A DNA stretch of 64,000 nt from an uncultured delta proteobacterium (GTDB lineage: Bacteria; Desulfobacterota; RBG-13-43-22). The DNA is taken from contig CAWBOS010000012.1 in NCBI GenBank assembly GCA_963790475.1, positions 768,001-832,000 of the forward strand, read 5' to 3'. Positions 31,180 through 38,865 of this stretch are shown in pieces. A model generated the notes under the pieces. That model saw only the letters and a list, made by a program, of their open reading frames with translations, had not been told where the DNA came from and ran no database searches. Position numbers and translations under genes: made by a program. Within the stretch, counting starts at the first letter, position 1; the number at the start of each line of letters is the position of its first letter.

Positions 31180-31247
31180 GTCATTCCTGCGAAAGCAGGA
31201 ATCCAGTTATATAATTCTCTCTGGACCCCGGCTTTCGCCGAGGTGAC
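31180..31247. repeat. REP-like palindrome
   Basis: GTCATTCCTGCGAAAGCAGGAATCCAG...CTGGACCCCGGCTTTCGCCGAGGTGAC. Confidence 0.7.
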
Positions 31248-31293
31248 AGAATTTATATATTCTATTTTTTGGAGTTCAACAATCACGAACATC

Positions 31294-34200
31294 ATGCCCC
31301 AGAACTCTTTAATAGACAGGGAAAAGCCAACGGCCGTCGATGAAGCTCGCGAAGACGAATTGATTGCCCGTTTTGGTGACGCCCTTTCCCCTTTGATCAA
31401 TCGCTTCGGCTACGAAGGGATCGATTCCATTGGCCTGCTGATGGCCCGGCTGAGACAGGCGGACCGCCAGGCGGCCCTGGCCCTGATGGAGAAGAGTCCT
31501 GCCCTTATCGAGGGCCTTCTTCCTTATGGAGAAGAACTGGTCCGGGAGGTTTTTGGTCTGGCCGATCAGTTGATTCCTCTCGGACCTCTTTGTGCCTTCA
31601 GATTTCTGGAGATGAGTCCCCGAATTCTGGAAAAGAGCGACTATGAAACGCTGGTCAAAACAACTGCCCTAATCGGCGAAATCGCCGCTGTCCATGAGGA
31701 TTTGGCGATGTGCCTGATGGGGCATAGTCCGGAGCTCATCGAGTCCGCCGGCTTTGCCGGGCTGGAAAAGTTGGCCCATTTCGGCGCGGCCATCGCCGGT
31801 TCAAGCCGGACCTACGCCTTGAAGACCATTGAAAACAGCCTCTCCATCATCCGACCCCTCCAAGAAATGGGCGGGATTCCCTTAGTCCACGCTGTCTTCA
31901 ACCTGGGGATAAAAATGGCCGCTGAGGATTGGAATTACGCTCTGGAATTTTTTGAAAAAAGCCCGGCCATTGTATCAAAACTCCAAGGCCAGGGAGCAGG
32001 TTTTGACCTTCTTGATCAGGCCCTCCGGGCCGTTCCCTTCAGCGCCCAATTGACTTTAGCCCTTCTGGATTCCGCCTCCTATTTAATCGACTGCCTGGGT
32101 CCAACTGGTCTGGATTCGGTTTGGCAATGTGCGCTGGTCATGGCAGCCGACCATACGGAAAAAGGCAATATCATTCTCCGGGAAAGTCCGGGTATCGTTG
32201 ATCGACTTCTGGACTTTGTTACTCCCGGTCAGGTGATCGAGATTTTTGAATTGGGAAGGGAACTGGCCGGGTTGGGTTCAGAAGCGACCCTTGAATTTAT
32301 CTTGGGAAGCATCGAGCTTGCCCGGCAATTTGATTTTTCAATCTTGAAGGTCGTTTCCGATGCAGCCGAAGAAATTGCAGCCAGCAGCCGGAATACGGCT
32401 GCGGACTTTTTGAAGGCTGCCCCGGCATTGCTGAGCCGGGTGGATCGGCAAGGACTATGGAAAATTGTCGATCGTATAGTCCCCATAGCCCGTGACAACT
32501 GGGAAACGGCCTCGCGGCTTCTTCTTAAAGCCCCCGATGTGATTGATCGTTTGGGACCTGAGGGTTTGGAAAAGATCACGGATTTTTCAGCATTTCTGGC
32601 CCGGGAAAGCTGGTCGACCGCAGTTCAATTCCTTGAAAAATGTCCTCTTCTTATTGATGAACTTTTGAAACAAGGCGATGCCTCTTTGGTATTTGAGGTC
32701 TGCCGGCTTGGCCGCCGGATTGCTCAAACCAATGCCCGGCTGGCCGTGAGCCTGATGAGCCGCAGTTCCGAAATTATTGAATTGATCGGCTTTGAGGGTC
32801 TGGAAAAGGTGGAGGAACTGGCCCTTCGGATAGGCCCCGAGAATTGGACTACGGCGGTAAGCCTGGCGGAGGCGAGTCCCCTCCTTTTGGAAAGGGTGGG
32901 TTATGAGGGCTTGGAACGAATCTCGGGCGTGGCCCGAAATCTGGCCCGGGAGAATAGCTTTGCGGCCGTGAGTCTCCTGGAAAAAGCCCCGGACTTGATC
33001 GATCACCTCTTGGAAACCGGAATTAAAAATCAAATCCTCCCTGTCTATGAACTGGTAGGGGAGGCCGCCGCCGCAAACTGGAGATTGGCCACGGCTCTTT
33101 TGGAAAAAAGCCCGGAACTGTTGTCTAAACTGGGTGCTGAGGGATTAGAGAAGCTGGCGGCCTTGCTCATTCAAACAGCCAGAGTTAACGGACAAATTGC
33201 TGTCCGACTGTTGGATCTGAGCCCGGTTCTGCTGGACCAACTCGGTTTTGAAGGAATGGAAATCGCAGCCGGCTTGATTTCTTTTCTGGCCGGGTCCGAT
33301 TGGATGGCCGCCCTGGCCTTGTTGGAGAAAAGCCCTTTAATAATCGACCGGCTGGGTCAATCCCGAGAAAGGGCCATGGCCCCGGCCGTTTTTGACCTGG
33401 CCGCCAAGGTGGCCCGCACCAGTCCGGCAGCGGCTGCAAAACTTCTGGAAAAAAGTCCGGAATTGATTGATTGGGTGGGATGGGAAGGTTTCGGAAAAAT
33501 AGCCGCATTTATTGAAAACACGGCCGGAGAGGATGAACAAAAGGCCCTTTCTTTTTTGGCCAGCGAATCCCCCACCTGGACCGATTTTCTGGAAAATATT
33601 CCCAAAGGTTTGGAGTTGAAGACCATCCAGTCGATCCTTTCCCATTACCTTAAGGCCCTTTTGGGTCGAAGGGTGGAAATCGCCGAGGCCGGGAAGGCCT
33701 ATACGGACGGAAAAAAAATCTACCTCCCCGGACGGATCCGAGATTTTCAGAATCAGGACGATAACTTTATGGCCTATAAAGTCGCGGCCACCCATCTGGA
33801 AGGCCACCTGGAGTACGGGAGTTTTGAATTCGATCTTAGCCGGATCGAAGACTACCTTAACAGAAAGGGTTTTCTTTCGGCAATCGAGAGCCGGGATGAT
33901 GAAAGCGATATGGACCGGTTTGCCGCATTTTTTCCGGAACCGGATCTGGCCCGGGATCTTTTCAATCTTATGGAAGACTGGAGGATAGAAAAAATATTGC
34001 AGGGAGAGTATCCCGCTTTGGGAGAGGAAATTTTTCGGATAAATATCCACCGGGTCTCCAAACGCAGTTCTCCCCGAAAAATGACCAATCCTAAACAACG
34101 GATCGTGGAAATGATCGGGCAATCCTTGCTGGCCGGAAAGGATTTCAGAGATGGGGATCCTCGAAGTCTGGACATTCTGCAGAAGGCTTTGGAAAAGGCA

Positions 34201-35679
34201 AGTTTACTGGAGCGGCCGGAGGCTGATGTGCATACGGCGGCTGGAATAGCCATTGATCTGTATCTCCTGATCAATGAACAATTCCAGGAAGCCTACCGTC
34301 CGGCAAAGCCCCTAGCGAACCCCCTGGATCAGAATAAAGTCGCCCAAAATATCGGAAGCTTTGGAAAGACCTCCCAGCAAATACAGGACCGGATCCGAGG
34401 CAGACGGGGTGCCGGGGGGAATCGGCCCCAAACGCAACCGGAAGCTGAAAGCGGGTCTGAGGGAGAAACCCAACCGACCAGCAGCCGACCGGGTCAGGAA
34501 AATATTCAACAGCGGCAACAGGCTGCCGGCAAAGAGCAACGCACCTTTCAAGGACCGGCCGGGGGAGGAAAACAGGAATCCGGCGATGCGGACCCGGCCG
34601 GGGAAGAAACGGGCCGGGTGGGTGAGGACATGAAGTTCGATTCCCGGGAAAAGATAGAGCGGCTGCTCAAGGCCCTTTACCATGAGCGGGGGATTACCCC
34701 CAAGGAAATCGAACGGCGGTTTGAATCCCTCAATCAAAATGAAATTTATCTCTTCCTTAATAACCTGGAGGCCTCGCTGGCCAAAAAGACGGAACTCCAA
34801 AGCGAAAGGGGGAGCTCTTTGTATCCGGAGTGGGGAGAGGATATCCATGACTACCGCGCCAACTGGGCCAGAATACGCGAGCAGACCCTTCCGGGGAGAT
34901 CGCTGGGCTTTTACCGGGAATCCTTGGATAAACACTCCGGACTCCTGAAAAAAATCAGAAGAGAGTTTCAGATGCTGAAACCGGAAGGGTTTACCCGTCG
35001 TAAGCGGCAATATGACGGGGATGATATCGACCTGGAAGCCGTGGTCGAGTATTGGGTGGACCGGAAAGTCGGACTGTCCCCTTCGGAAAAAAACTATACC
35101 CTTCATCAGAAAAAAAAGCGCGACATCGCCGTGGCTTTTCTAATCGATATGAGCCGGAGCACCAAAGGGGCCACCATCGAATTGGAGAAGGAGGCGCTGA
35201 TCATCATGTCCGAGGCCCTGAACGAAGTCGGAGATGCCTTTGCCGTCTTCGGATTTTCAGGCGATAACCGCGATAACGTGGACTATTTCCGGATCAAGGC
35301 TTTTGACGACCCTTATGACAATCCGGTGAAAAAAAGGATCTCGGCCATTACCGACCGCTTCGAAAACCGGGATGGAACGGCGATCCGGCACACCATCCAT
35401 AAACTGAGAAGGAGATCGGAACGGACCAAATTGCTTATTCTATTAAGCGACGGCAAACCGGTGGACAAAGAATATGCCGGCGCCTACGCCATTGAAGACA
35501 CGCGCTTGGCTTTAAAAGAAGCTCGTCATTACGGGATCAGGACATTCTGTATTACCGTAGATCGCACGGCCGCCGAATACCTGCCCCGGATGTACAGCCA
35601 CAGCAGTTGGACCGTCATTGACGAAGTGAACAAACTTCCTGAAAAAATTACCCGTATTTACCGCATACTGACGGCTTGA
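31294..35679 (+). CDS. Giant NorD/CbbO-like VWA protein with ~19 N-terminal alpha-helical repeats
   Basis: C-terminus YPEW...Y, DGDDIDL, MIDAS DMSRST, NRDGTAIRH, LSDGKP. N-terminal ~37-41-aa repeats A..LLEKSP.LI..LG.EGLEK. Confidence 0.88.
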   Translation: MPQNSLIDREKPTAVDEAREDELIARFGDALSPLINRFGYEGIDSIGLLMARLRQADRQAALALMEKSPALIEGLLPYGEELVREVFGLADQLIPLGPLCAFRFLEMSPRILEKSDYETLVKTTALIGEIAAVHEDLAMCLMGHSPELIESAGFAGLEKLAHFGAAIAGSSRTYALKTIENSLSIIRPLQEMGGIPLVHAVFNLGIKMAAEDWNYALEFFEKSPAIVSKLQGQGAGFDLLDQALRAVPFSAQLTLALLDSASYLIDCLGPTGLDSVWQCALVMAADHTEKGNIILRESPGIVDRLLDFVTPGQVIEIFELGRELAGLGSEATLEFILGSIELARQFDFSILKVVSDAAEEIAASSRNTAADFLKAAPALLSRVDRQGLWKIVDRIVPIARDNWETASRLLLKAPDVIDRLGPEGLEKITDFSAFLARESWSTAVQFLEKCPLLIDELLKQGDASLVFEVCRLGRRIAQTNARLAVSLMSRSSEIIELIGFEGLEKVEELALRIGPENWTTAVSLAEASPLLLERVGYEGLERISGVARNLARENSFAAVSLLEKAPDLIDHLLETGIKNQILPVYELVGEAAAANWRLATALLEKSPELLSKLGAEGLEKLAALLIQTARVNGQIAVRLLDLSPVLLDQLGFEGMEIAAGLISFLAGSDWMAALALLEKSPLIIDRLGQSRERAMAPAVFDLAAKVARTSPAAAAKLLEKSPELIDWVGWEGFGKIAAFIENTAGEDEQKALSFLASESPTWTDFLENIPKGLELKTIQSILSHYLKALLGRRVEIAEAGKAYTDGKKIYLPGRIRDFQNQDDNFMAYKVAATHLEGHLEYGSFEFDLSRIEDYLNRKGFLSAIESRDDESDMDRFAAFFPEPDLARDLFNLMEDWRIEKILQGEYPALGEEIFRINIHRVSKRSSPRKMTNPKQRIVEMIGQSLLAGKDFRDGDPRSLDILQKALEKASLLERPEADVHTAAGIAIDLYLLINEQFQEAYRPAKPLANPLDQNKVAQNIGSFGKTSQQIQDRIRGRRGAGGNRPQTQPEAESGSEGETQPTSSRPGQENIQQRQQAAGKEQRTFQGPAGGGKQESGDADPAGEETGRVGEDMKFDSREKIERLLKALYHERGITPKEIERRFESLNQNEIYLFLNNLEASLAKKTELQSERGSSLYPEWGEDIHDYRANWARIREQTLPGRSLGFYRESLDKHSGLLKKIRREFQMLKPEGFTRRKRQYDGDDIDLEAVVEYWVDRKVGLSPSEKNYTLHQKKKRDIAVAFLIDMSRSTKGATIELEKEALIIMSEALNEVGDAFAVFGFSGDNRDNVDYFRIKAFDDPYDNPVKKRISAITDRFENRDGTAIRHTIHKLRRRSERTKLLILLSDGKPVDKEYAGAYAIEDTRLALKEARHYGIRTFCITVDRTAAEYLPRMYSHSSWTVIDEVNKLPEKITRIYRILTA

Positions 35680-35761
35680 GAGGGTATCATGACCTTTTGG
35701 TTAAAAGAATATATCAGGTGTAAATATATCGTACCAACATAGGTATATGAAAAAGGGCTTT

Positions 35762-35940
35762 TTTCACCAGACGCTGAGGACGCAGAGAAGATAATTTATT
35801 GATTGCCGGTGAGAGGCCGGCAATCAATAAACTTCGCAACCCTCTGGGTATCTTTTTGGCCAAAAGGCCTGAGCAGTGTTGAACAATCCCGCCTCTCACG
35901 GGATTGTTCAACAATAATTCTCTCTGCGTCCTTTGCGTCT
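35762..35940. repeat. Structured repeat copy B (interrupted by IS110; remainder at 37541-37551)
   Basis: Hairpins 35795-35831 (loop TGAGAGG) and 35877-35913 (loop CCTCTCA). The terminal CTGCGGTGAAA is displaced to the far side of the IS. Confidence 0.85.
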
Positions 35941-35984
35941 GGTTTATTGTTGTCAAGAGTTTTTTAAATATTATTAAACAAACT

Positions 35985-36165
35985 GGTAACTATCTTAGAG
36001 TGACACCTTGCCCAACTCTGGTAATTTGAGAGTCTCAACAGAGCTCTAACCTTGCTTTATTGGGGTTAAGGTGCAAGCGGAGAGTTATTTAAGCTCTGCG
36101 AGAAGGTCGACTTAGTCGCCTTAGATGCCGCAAACGATAATCTCTCCGCTTACACGCTAAGAAGG
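35985..36165 (-). ncRNA. Candidate bridge RNA/seekRNA in the 3' non-coding end (boundaries approximate)
   Basis: Two stem-enclosed internal loops, each with an apical hairpin, carrying short matches to target and donor flanks (see findings). Confidence 0.7.
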
Positions 36166-36166
36166 T

Positions 36167-37426
36167 CTAAGCAGCCAGTTTTAACGTTGCTCCTTTTGAA
36201 TAATTTTCCATATATTCGTTATGATCACGCACCAAGGCAAAAATAACACCGAGAAGCTTCCGGGCAATGGCTACCAGGGCCTTGATCTTGGGCATTCCTT
36301 GATCCAGATGCCTTTGATAGGCCGTATGCATCACTCCCCCTTTTCGAACCGTATTGATAGCGGCAAAAAAGAGGATTTTCCTAAGAAGCGACCGGCCTCT
36401 TTTGGATATATGACGATTCCCTTGGTGCCTTCCAGAACTGATTTCAAAGAGGTTCAGTCCGGCCAACTTCAGGACTTCAGCCAGCGTATGAAATTTACGA
36501 AAATCCCCGACTTCTCCAATCAGTCCGGCGGCGGTAACCTCTCCTATCCCTTTCAAGGACAGAATCGAATGACTATAGGGGATCTCGGGAAGAAGGGCCG
36601 CCATCTCCTGTTCCGCCTTCTCAATAAACTGGTCAGAAGATTCAATCTCAGAAAGAAGTTCTCGTATCTCAAAAAGAATCGCCTTGCGGCCTTCTTGAAG
36701 ACCTACGGAATGGCCAGCGGCCGCATAAAGGGCCGGGGCTCGCTCTTTATCCAGCTTCCCTCGGCTAACCCGTCTCAGCGTGGCCCTCAAGGTCCCAAGA
36801 CCACATTGGATAATATCTTCCGGGCACGGATAATGCCGCAACAGATATTGGGCACTGCGGGTTTTAATATTCTTCATCACTTGCAGAAACTCGGGGAAGA
36901 CAATAAAGACCAAATCCTGAATCTGGTTCAAAAGGCCCGTTCGTCTTCGTATGGCTCTCTCCCTGGCATGGGTCAGTCGGCGAAGTTCAGCTGCCGCGCC
37001 TTCGGGAATGACCACGGTAAGGGCATGACCCAGCTCAATAATATCCGCAATGACTTTGGGATCTTTCCTATCCGTCTTATTGGGCGAGTTACCCTGGACT
37101 TCCTTCAACTTCTTCGTATGCATAGGATTAACCTGAACCAGTGTCACCGGCCGTTTCATCAGAAAATGTTGCAAGGGTTCTCCATAAGACCCGGTGGATT
37201 CAAAACCAACCACGATTTCTTCCAAGTGATTGGCCTCTTTGGCCTCAACCATCCGATTCCAAAATTTCGTAAATCCTTGATCATTATTGAAAAACTCAAA
37301 AGGTTTGATTTCCGTCCGGTCTGGACAGCGGCCATATCCCATATTGGTCGTTTTGCCTATGTCCACGGTACCGATAAGGGTTTTTTCATTGACCTTCTTA
37401 AGTTTTTTTGTTTCAATCTTATTCAT
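36167..37426 (-). CDS. IS110 family DEDD transposase/recombinase
   Basis: GTVDIGK (D), GFESTG (E), KTDRKD (D,D), GIG..TA..LIGE, SSG (Ser), ISKRG, ARKL. Confidence 0.95.
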   Translation of the reverse strand: MNKIETKKLKKVNEKTLIGTVDIGKTTNMGYGRCPDRTEIKPFEFFNNDQGFTKFWNRMVEAKEANHLEEIVVGFESTGSYGEPLQHFLMKRPVTLVQVNPMHTKKLKEVQGNSPNKTDRKDPKVIADIIELGHALTVVIPEGAAAELRRLTHARERAIRRRTGLLNQIQDLVFIVFPEFLQVMKNIKTRSAQYLLRHYPCPEDIIQCGLGTLRATLRRVSRGKLDKERAPALYAAAGHSVGLQEGRKAILFEIRELLSEIESSDQFIEKAEQEMAALLPEIPYSHSILSLKGIGEVTAAGLIGEVGDFRKFHTLAEVLKLAGLNLFEISSGRHQGNRHISKRGRSLLRKILFFAAINTVRKGGVMHTAYQRHLDQGMPKIKALVAIARKLLGVIFALVRDHNEYMENYSKGATLKLAA

Positions 37427-37605
37427 GGCTATACTCCTTTCCTTGGTTTGGGTTTAACCAACTTGCAAATTGGACCTCAAATCAAGAAAGAGTATAGCCT
37501 TTTTTGTACGGCTTAACTACTTTCTAAAATATAGCAAGCTCTGCGGTGAAATTTCGTGTTTAAAAAAGCGAAATAGATACAAAAAATAAAACTTGGAGGT
37601 GACTT

Positions 37606-38175
37606 ATGGCTAAGGATTCTAAGGAAAAGAAGAAGGAGGCAATTGTCGGAGTGATGAACCAGGCGCGCTCCATGGAGTTGCTGGCAATTAACCAATACAT
37701 GAATCAGCATTACAATCTGGACAATATGGATTACGGAGATCTGGCCGCCAAGGTCAAGCTGATCGCCATCGACGAGATGCGTCATGCCGAGATGTTCGCC
37801 GATCGTATTAAAGAATTAGGCGGGGAGCCGACCGCTGACCCGGCGGGAAAGGTGGAAAAGGGGCAGAAGGTGGAAGCCGTTTTCCCCTTTGATGCTGATC
37901 TGGAAGACCATACCATCGAGCAGTATAACCAGTTTCTTGCCCTCTGCCGAGAAAACGGCGACAGCATCAGTAAGAAGCTTTTTGAAACCATTATCGATGA
38001 AGAACAGATTCATTTTACTTATTTTGACAATATCAAGGACCACATTAAGAATCTGGACGGGACTTATTTAGCCCAGATTGCCGGGACGCCGTCCACTACC
38101 GGTCTGCAGACGCAGGGTTTTGTCGCCAGACGAGGAACGACTGGAACACCGGGAAAGCCCCCGGCAGGGGCCTGA
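37606..38175 (+). CDS. bfr: Bacterioferritin
   Basis: ELLAINQY..H, DEMRHAE (haem-ligand Met), RIKELGG, DEEQIH. Confidence 0.85.
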   Translation: MAKDSKEKKKEAIVGVMNQARSMELLAINQYMNQHYNLDNMDYGDLAAKVKLIAIDEMRHAEMFADRIKELGGEPTADPAGKVEKGQKVEAVFPFDADLEDHTIEQYNQFLALCRENGDSISKKLFETIIDEEQIHFTYFDNIKDHIKNLDGTYLAQIAGTPSTTGLQTQGFVARRGTTGTPGKPPAGA

Positions 38176-38289
38176 TTTGAGAAGGCAATGGATCTGGTTC
38201 TCATTTTTCTCCTTGCCTCTTATGCAGCTCTCCCATATACTTCTAATCTCTTTTCCTGAAAAAGGAAGAAAGACTATTAAAAAGAAAGG

Positions 38290-38865
38290 ATGAACAGAAT
38301 GGATTTTACAGAACTTCTTGAAAAACGGCGTGCCGTCAGGGATTTTGAGGACAAGGCAGTCCCTTTGGAGGTGATTAAGGCCATCATCGCCGACAGCATC
38401 AAGGCCCCCAACGCCAGCAACCGGCAACCCTGGAAATTTATCGTGGTCAATAATAAGGCCATGCTGAAGAGGATTTCCGATGCCAGTAAAAAGGTCATTA
38501 TTGCCGGGATTGAAAAAGACCCCAACTCACCTATGAAGGGATACCTGGATACTCTGAAAAAGGAAGATTATAACGTCTTCTACAACGGCTCCTGCGCGGT
38601 GATCATCGTTGCCCCGGTCAAAGGGGCTACCATCGCTCAAGACTGCGGTTTATTGGCGGCTTATTTTATGCTCTCAGCCGCTTCCAGGGGTTTGGGCACC
38701 TGCTGGATCGCTCAGGGTGCGGAAGCCCGTGATCCGGAACTGCTCAAGGAACTTGGTCTGCCTGATGGCTACCGGATGTGGGCCCCTCTCGTCCTGGGTT
38801 ATCCCAAAGCGATTCCGCCTATGCCGGACCGTAAGGAACCCGATATCCTGAAAATCATCAGTTAA
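38290..38865 (+). CDS. Nitroreductase family protein
   Basis: RRAVRDF, APNASNRQPWKF, GLGTCWI, LGYP. Confidence 0.9.
   Translation: MNRMDFTELLEKRRAVRDFEDKAVPLEVIKAIIADSIKAPNASNRQPWKFIVVNNKAMLKRISDASKKVIIAGIEKDPNSPMKGYLDTLKKEDYNVFYNGSCAVIIVAPVKGATIAQDCGLLAAYFMLSAASRGLGTCWIAQGAEARDPELLKELGLPDGYRMWAPLVLGYPKAIPPMPDRKEPDILKIIS

Follow-up and report, generated by a model that had tools for sequence, protein, structure and literature searches.

A bridge-RNA-guided insertion sequence very probably occupies positions 35941 to 37538 (minus strand) of the window, that is, of the whole 64,000-nucleotide stretch analysed here, which comes from an uncultured delta proteobacterium (GenBank assembly GCA_963790475.1, contig CAWBOS010000012.1, positions 768,001 to 832,000 of the forward strand). 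The element is 1,598 bp long and of the IS110 family. Its transposase gene is followed by a predicted two-loop RNA in which four guide segments match the two halves of the target site and the two ends of the element, and in relatives inserted elsewhere the segments facing the target change with the flanks. Recombinases programmed by bridge or seek RNAs are a young class, first described in 2024, and few orthologues have been studied at the bench.

The boundaries were obtained from a comparison of occupied and empty sites. A preliminary description of the stretch had read the dinucleotide CT at both junctions, which was borne out by a check of the sequence. At the right end, that is, the side 3' of the transposase gene, the element starts with GGTTT... 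at 35941 and is preceded by CT at 35939 to 35940, which reads AG on the transposase strand; at the left end, it runs as ...TAGCAAG up to 37538 and is followed by CT at 37539 to 37540. A genome-wide copy search found 10 copies of 1,598 bp. CT was present at both junctions in 10/10 copies and once in empty sites, where the sequence TTTGCGTCTTTGCGGT corresponds to the left flank of the occupied copies, a single CT and the right flank. This fixes the element boundaries and a shared core of 2 bp, CT, at which insertion takes place with no further duplication. Between the window copy and each of the nine others there is a single difference, at base 36532, and such near identity indicates that the element was active recently. 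At this base the window copy has C (Ala299, a residue conserved in relatives) and the nine others T (Thr299); the latter is a derived variant common to the nine, so that the window copy may be nearer the founder. The gene is preceded by about 87 to 110 nt and followed by a non-coding region of about 226 to 228 nt.

The transposase, or bridge recombinase (36167 to 37426, minus strand, 419 amino acids), is the only long open reading frame (ORF) of the element with a family match, and its DEDD/Ser recombinase gene is intact in the window copy. It matches the Pfam domains PF01548 (DEDD_Tnp_IS110, E 2.5e-24) and PF02371 (Transposase_20, E 1.6e-20), as well as the NCBIfam model NF033542, 'IS110 family RNA-guided transposase', with 218 bits for a cutoff of 140. 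An alignment to the IS621 recombinase (PDB 8wt6, chain 8wt6_A; E 4.4e-8, mostly C-terminal) places E76, D119 and D122 opposite E60, D102 and D105 of IS621, and an SSG motif at its catalytic serine (S241). Residues D22, E76, D119, D122, S330, S331 and G332 are invariant in five relatives. D22 lies outside the IS621 alignment, and we infer its catalytic position from the motif TVDIGK. By its domains and catalytic residues, the protein is an IS110 family (sensu lato) recombinase. No ISfinder name was found for the clade: among 3,931 proteins at E <= 1e-30, the 120 with the best matches were all named generically ('IS110 family transposase', 'transposase').

The predicted bridge RNA (35999 to 36159, minus strand) begins 8 nt after the stop codon and is matched by the covariance model R1, presented below, with 160 bits (E 2e-37). 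The four motifs singled out in the preliminary description are all present on the minus strand, in the order UUUGCG (36134-36129), CGCAGAG (36100-36094), AGCAAG (36056-36051) and ACCAG (36022-36018). UUUGCG is the 5' guide of loop 1, similar to a left target guide (LTG); it has the sense of the window plus strand and would pair with the transposase-sense strand of the target. After a conserved hairpin, AAGGCGAC-UAA-GUCGACCUU (36103 to 36122, mean column entropy 0.59 bits), comes the 3' guide of the loop, similar to a right target guide (RTG; 36091 to 36100), in which CGCAGAG covers the core and target positions 10 to 14 and the following CUU is the putative handshake to the left-end AAG. Loop 2 is built in the same way. 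Its 5' guide AGCAAG, similar to a left donor guide (LDG), matches the left-end bases 37533-38; a conserved hairpin follows (36029 to 36047), whose pair 140-158 is AU in 32 rows of the alignment and GC in 31; and the 3' guide, similar to a right donor guide (RDG; 36017 to 36022), has ACCAG covering the core and the right-end GGT, then an A as putative handshake to position 7 of the target, a T. The core-containing guides reach into the recombinant junctions, as had been proposed: the 10-nt AAGCTCTGCG at 36091-36100 is identical to 37536-45, and TCTGGT at 36017-22 to 35938-43.

Each of these matches is short, and their joint placement was presented from the start as the argument. It stood up well: when the 3' non-coding region (226 nt) was shuffled by mononucleotide 200,000 times, no shuffle held all four in the observed order, for an expectation of about 1e-7. 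The single-sequence fold has an energy of -67.9 kcal/mol (z = -4.6, 0/200 shuffles as good). Both of the closing stems in the preliminary description were found in the single-sequence and consensus folds, except for the outer 5 bp of stem 1: these pairs, 36071-75/36151-55, are in competition with the base of stem 2, the alternative that covariation favours. No Rfam family matched at E <= 1 in window positions 35000-38500, and a search of the genome for orphan copies of the RNA gave none, since R1 had exactly 10 matches, one per element. An RNA on the opposite strand was also considered, as this strand folds nearly as well alone (-70.2 kcal/mol, z = -3.55). It was rejected on the basis of 210 G-U cells in the alignment of relatives, which would turn into A-C on that strand (94% of them paired on the transposase strand, compared to 85% on the opposite one); this indicates that the transposase strand is the RNA strand, and gene order and guide senses also fit that strand.

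Relatives of the element were found in 6/20 searched genomes of the same family, with proteins 52 to 83% identical and each with its own target. They have end motifs in common, AG-CTTGCTATATT on the left and TTGAC...AATAAAC(C/A)-AG on the right, and their flanks differ. A scan of genome contigs then found 167 relatives; the best 80, which were retained, come from records titled delta-proteobacteria/Thermodesulfobacteriota, Nitrospirota, Planctomycetota (Scalindua, Brocadiaceae) and others. The model R1, built from six sequences, was run on 75 sources, namely the window, L031, L026 and 72 of the best 80 loci (the other 8 are further copies in two metagenome-assembled genomes, MAGs, that the set already includes). 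It matched 73/75 of them, always directly after the transposase gene and on its strand, and the two sources that it missed, L060 and L106, are on contigs that stop 73 and 26 nt beyond the gene. Across the alignment, 94.0% of cells pair, compared to 35.6-49.5% when partners are slid, and double (compensatory) changes are present in 25/37 pairs; none of 500 shuffles reached any of the five measures used. In more distant relatives (the Lachnospira element, ISBth13 and an ISEc32-like element), R1 gave nothing below E = 1.5 with filters off, which indicates that it is specific to a clade with at least about 52% protein identity.

The flanks of these elements show whether the loops follow the target. 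A right flank could be read for 46/73 elements and a left flank for 57/73, the end being absent from the contig or outside the end pattern in the remainder; the counts include three elements (L076, L088 and L109) whose right ends the pattern probably misplaced. Among the 46 elements whose right flank could be used there are 35 distinct 5' target guides, for which the longest exact match to the cognate flank was 6.06 nt on average, compared to 3.27 nt for non-cognate flanks and 2.71 for the wrong-strand control. For the 3' target guide (43 distinct guides from 57 elements), the corresponding values were 5.84, 3.36 and 3.14 nt. With either guide, none of 5,000 permutations reached the observed mean. 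Covariation of guide and target among homologues, which had been put forward as a check of the original reading, is thus present: the loop-1 segments track each element's own flanks in a conserved scaffold. Examples are TTGAATCC with the flank GATTCAA in G003, CCCTCCCCT with GGGAGGG in G020, GCAAGAGTC in L082, TCACAGACCC in L091 and, for guide 2, GCCGCAGCTT in L070; about a dozen unrelated target sequences are represented among the elements.

The donor guides of loop 2 change only where the element ends change. The 5' guide becomes AGCACG in L110 and L126, which have the left end CGTGCT, and the 3' guide becomes ACAAG where the right end is ...AACA-AG. The two target guides had column entropies of 1.48 and 1.22 bits and the two donor guides 0.28 and 0.47 bits, with values of 0.50-0.68 in the scaffold. 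The predicted RNA is therefore a structured one, with a target loop and a donor loop that covary with target and donor. The arrangement proposed at the outset, an RNA 3' of the gene on the transposase strand, with a 5' target loop, a 3' donor loop and handshake extensions, is supported more by these relatives than by the single copy. Two relatives, L024 (G010) and L025 (G013), have one in-frame stop in the transposase gene (TAA and TGA, respectively); their 3' RNA and ends are recognisable and still match the flanks. A more distant IS110-family element, L130, is located on a Lachnospira eligens plasmid (NZ_CP085937.1, 212471-216682) and encodes a 429-amino-acid transposase. Its left end is AG-CTTCCTGTATAAT-like, its stop codon is followed by about 440 nt, and its right end has the motif CACTTGAT..., so that the 3' non-coding region extends to distant relatives in the Bacillota, even though R1 has no match there.

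In the window, the target is split into a left half, TTTGCGT (35932 to 35938, plus strand; positions 1-7 in the frame of the bridge RNA), and a right half, CTGCG (37541 to 37545, plus strand; positions 10-14). All 10 copies are located at a site of the form TTTGCGT-CT-YTGYG: nine have the left flank TTTGCGT-CT and one has TCTGCGT-CT, and the right flanks have CT followed by CTGCG, TTGCG, TTGTG, CCGCG or CTGTG. Positions 10 and 13, each facing a G of the guide, thus vary between C and T, a possible G:T wobble, and the C at position 2 of the variant left flank is compatible with a U:G wobble; one occupied site has an outright mismatch at position 11. Nine of the insertions lie in the tail of a host hairpin repeat, about 25-35 nt downstream of the conserved hairpin. 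The tenth, C6:14567, lies at the same 14-nt sequence outside the repeat and has no such hairpin.

This host repeat, at 35757-35940 and 37541-37560 in the window and present genome-wide, is made up of a hairpin whose stems covary and whose CCTCTCA-like loop is conserved, then a spacer rich in A and a tail of YTGCG units that ends in GGTGAA (consensus TTCTtTGCG.tCTTTGCGgCTTTGCGGTGAAAA). At least 57 empty copies were counted in the genome, every one with the upstream hairpin, and the repeat is absent from Rfam. The window has two repeat units in inverted orientation, which is enough to account for their complementary loops, called a kissing loop in the preliminary description. Insertions into hairpin-plus-YTGCG tails ending ...CT-TTGCGGTGA were also read from the flanks of L064, L063, L129, L080, L102 and others, in Planctomycetota (Scalindua), Nitrospirota and other Desulfobacterota MAGs; from these sequences, the repeat type appears to occur across phyla.

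Position 7 of the target requires a separate account. In IS621, strand exchange is followed by pairing of the bases next to the 3' guides, on their 3' side, with the other DNA at its position 7 or positions 6-7; such handshake positions covary across orthologues, and pairing with the cognate DNA locks the complex (Hiraizumi 2024, PMC11208158). In the present element, loop 1 runs CGCAGAG-CUU, whose CUU is the complement of the donor AAG, not of the T at target position 7 (T7), and loop 2 runs ACCAG-A, whose A is the complement of T7, not of the donor G7. Among the relatives, the loop-2 handshake base corresponds to the first flank base in 38/46 elements, and a flank base that would allow the constant loop-1 C to pair with its own target is found only in the three elements with doubtful boundaries. 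In the genome of the window, 38 empty sites have the form TTTGCG-N-CT[CT]TGCGGT, where N is G 21 times, C 10 times, A 5 times and T twice. T7 is found in 10/10 occupied sites, compared to 2/38 empty sites of this strict set or 10/57 of a looser set (Fisher p = 7e-7, loose set). The 5' target guide carries G at position 7, as does the commonest repeat variant, which is never occupied.

That insertions into the repeat are confined to its rare T7 variant would follow from the handshake step. On a G7 target, the handshake C of loop 1 would pair with the very target of that loop, giving the state called 'locked' in IS621; with a C7 or an A7 target, the loop-2 A could not pair. A crossover of 3 nt was also considered as the cause of T7 and was rejected: for G-variant targets it would leave G7 at the left junction, which was never seen.

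Putting these data together, a pathway can be proposed by analogy with IS621 and ISEc11. Excision would join the ends of the element into a circle and thereby create a promoter at the junction. The -35 hexamer TTGACA is located in the right end (35951 to 35956, minus strand; TTGAC(A/T) is conserved in relatives) and the -10 hexamer TATATT, from a reading of the sequence, in the left end (37528 to 37533, minus strand; also conserved). Joined ends would place the two 17 nt apart, with 10 nt from the right end, the CT core and 5 nt from the left end, and the circle junction would form a TTGACA-17-TATATT promoter comparable to Pjunc of IS621, ISEc11 and others. The left-end motif AGCTTGCTATA(T/A)T is present in 57/73 relatives with the left end on the contig. 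A promoter scan found no promoter-like site on the minus strand inside the integrated element, nor was a T-run terminator found there on that strand. The only terminator-like site in 35700-37800 is the hairpin of the neighbouring repeat (35793-35833, minus strand), with a 17-bp stem and then a run rich in T; on the transposase strand it comes about 110-150 nt downstream of where the element has its right end.

The junction promoter would drive a single transcript serving as transposase mRNA and as the source of the RNA, about 160 nt long, that would be processed from it. The bridge RNA would then bind dimers of the recombinase. In the target, UUUGCG of loop 1 would pair with one strand of TTTGCG and CGCAGAG with the opposite strand of CT-CTGCG; in the circle junction, AGCAAG of loop 2 would likewise take one strand, and ACCAG the opposite strand of CT-GGT. 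Once the first strands have been exchanged at CT, they would be stabilised by the handshake bases, CUU of loop 1 by pairing with the donor AAG and A of loop 2 by pairing with T7 of the target.

Several observations weigh against this account or limit it. The RNA, the circle junction and transposition are predictions from the sequence. The 5' target guide of the window copy mismatches its target at position 7 and at the second core base, and 8/46 elements break the handshake rule, including the three with doubtful boundaries; as to the preference for T7, we infer its explanation from the biochemistry of IS621. The pair counts were made on an alignment fitted to the structure of the model, which biases them towards that structure. 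The elements also share ancestry, and several lineages target similar YTGCG-rich repeats, so that the permutation p-values overstate independence and should not be read as true probabilities. Finally, cognate matches are only 3-4 nt long in 13/35 of the 5' guides, which is due in part to interrupted matches and to the probably misplaced right ends of L076, L088 and L109.

Comparison with characterised systems places the element more precisely. The bridge RNA of IS621 has guides that include the core, a target loop 5' of the donor loop, variable target guides and conserved donor guides (Durrant 2024, PMC11208160). The present element has the same order of loops, each an internal loop closed by a stem. 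As in IS621, the 5' side of either loop reads like one of the DNA strands, and opposite it is a 3' side that complements this strand and takes in the core. It likewise has variable target guides, conserved donor guides, handshake bases after the 3' guides, a CT core, a DEDD RuvC-like plus Tnp_20 recombinase with aligned catalytic residues, a target in a host repeat and, as a prediction, a promoter at the circle junction. It differs from IS621 in that the RNA is encoded after the recombinase gene rather than before it, and in that the recognition frame is inverted relative to the gene, the core being AG on the transposase strand. [quoted passage not shown]

ISPpu9 and ISPpu10, of the IS110 group, recombine at an invariant AG on the transposase strand and target a repeated extragenic palindrome (REP), as the present element has AG and targets a host repeat, and they form circular intermediates (PMC12288879). 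Their bridge RNA is however upstream of the transposase gene, and ISPpu9 has a strong native promoter (PMC12288879), in contrast to the integrated element of the window, inside which no promoter-like site was found. The nearest named relative is ISBth13, which also has a long IS110-type transposase and no subterminal inverted repeats (sTIRs); its gene has about 298 nt in front of it and about 95 nt behind, so that an RNA would fit upstream only. The L. eligens plasmid element resembles ours in its short left end, its long region after the stop codon and its similar end motifs.

The position of the RNA raises the question of whether the element is simply an ordinary IS1111-family member, its 3' RNA being the published seekRNA case and its classification in no way unusual. 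IS1111-group elements have the RNA in the right end (Durrant 2024, PMC11208160; Siddiquee 2024, 10.1101/2024.04.26.591405), and their seekRNAs have the guide for the transposase-sense strand first, unlike ISEc21 (Siddiquee 2024, 10.1101/2024.04.26.591405). The present element agrees with ISEc11, ISPa11 and ISKpn4 in its guide RNA and long non-coding region downstream of the gene for the transposase, in the guide complementary to the transposase-sense strand standing 5' of the other (the top-strand match 5' of the bottom-strand match), in a junction promoter Pjunc, here predicted, and in site-specific insertion with no duplication beyond the shared bases. IS1111 elements, however, usually have perfect or nearly perfect sTIRs of 11-13 bp, and transposases of 330-350 amino acids (Siddiquee 2024, 10.1101/2024.04.26.591405). 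The remark in the preliminary description that no obvious subterminal repeats are present was correct, and it matters for classification: in the terminal 70 nt, the best inverted match is 8/9, at unequal distances from the ends (positions 10-18 versus 53-61), and 434/500 shuffles do equally well. A reading of the ends gave only a 3-bp ATA...TAT flanking the donor, and no sTIR with 7-bp/3-bp terminal extensions. The transposase is about 80 amino acids longer than those of the family and barely similar to that of IS4321, an IS1111 member, which in pairwise BLASTP, with one IS1111 lineage compared, matches C-terminally only (residues 268-406, E 5e-6); by contrast, ISBth13 aligns over residues 21-405 (27.5%, E 4e-48) and the Lachnospira element is 35.6% identical (E 1.5e-78). 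The comparison covers one lineage because the search with an ISEc32-like protein led to IS621-like short enzymes and that with IS4321 was filled by IS4321/IS5075. We therefore regard ordinary IS1111 membership as very improbable. Judged by its sequence features, the element is outside that family, having no sTIR and a 419-amino-acid transposase: the predicted RNA is of the IS1111 seekRNA type in its polarity, and the recombinase is of the long-transposase, sTIR-less IS110 group. As for the IS110 group (sensu stricto), the element has its absent or very short terminal inverted repeats and does not have its RNA in the left end, a trait to which the literature allows exceptions.

Two further explanations would deny the RNA its role in target choice. 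The 3' structure could be a terminator, an mRNA-stability element or a translational regulator, and its likeness to the flanks due to chance or a relic of a captured flank. Single matches are indeed only 5-7 nt long, and the region is a 3' untranslated region. Yet the four motifs in order were not reproduced in the shuffles mentioned above; in many lineages the loops vary together with the flanks, and do so only on the predicted strand, and the donor guides follow changes of the ends. A terminator also fits poorly with the lack of a T-run on the minus strand of the element, and a captured flank would give one contiguous copy of one strand, not two halves of opposite sense in a conserved scaffold. 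This is the explanation to which we attach the least probability, next to none. Alternatively, the protein might recognise the structure of the repeat hairpin, as REP- or hairpin-directed transposases do, the RNA having no part in specificity. In favour of this are the 9/10 copies downstream of a conserved hairpin and the 57 empty sites that all have one upstream. The copy at C6:14567, with the same 14-nt sequence and no such hairpin, does not fit, nor do the relatives with 52-83% identical proteins, which use unrelated, non-repeat targets matching their own loop 1; and only the T7 variant of the repeat is used, though the hairpin is present at all variants. Recognition of the hairpin by the protein is accordingly very improbable. 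Recombination guided by the bridge RNA remains by far the best explanation of the data.

How new is such an element? The preliminary description had announced a new natural RNA-guided recombinase with a 3' RNA. A new member of the RNA-guided family it is; the 3' location was nevertheless already known from IS1111, and some IS110-type elements also have a 3' non-coding region (Siddiquee 2024, 10.1101/2024.04.26.591405). Since these had been noted, the placement found here is an under-described variant rather than a new one. No published description of the clade or of its repeat target was found in a literature search that stopped short of supplements; further literature comprises a review (PMC13604230), a Nature article of 2026 (PMC13626964) and two preprints (10.1101/2024.06.21.599552 and 10.1101/2025.10.25.684509).

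A broader reading, which we put forward only tentatively, combines three parts: a large uncharacterised subfamily of bridge recombinases, an RNA that switched ends or an IS1111 layout older than the sTIRs, and a choice among repeats decided by the handshake. If it is true, the subfamily would be one of anaerobic sediment and groundwater bacteria (Desulfobacterota, Nitrospirota, Planctomycetota), with long IS110-type enzymes and no subterminal repeats. Its two-loop RNA, 3' of the gene and with inverted polarity, would mean either that the RNA changed ends more than once or that the IS1111 layout predates sTIRs. The genome of the window would then be a natural experiment, in which the choice of repeat variant is made by the handshake bases and not by the 5' target guide.

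The known mechanism is unchanged by these results, and their research value is modest, for example as a candidate for orthologue screens. The element is a well-defined new orthologue, whose boundaries, target, donor, guide registers and handshake bases can be read from natural variation. Its mixed layout, an IS110-type enzyme with an IS1111-type RNA placement, bears on the movement of the RNA between element ends in evolution. The 10 occupied and 38-57 empty sites form a natural data set for position 7; the pattern fits the handshake rules of IS621, and our analysis suggests that these rules may shape target choice in nature.

Upstream of the element in the window, an ORF of 1,478 amino acids (31243-35679, plus strand) ends about 80 nt before the repeat pair.

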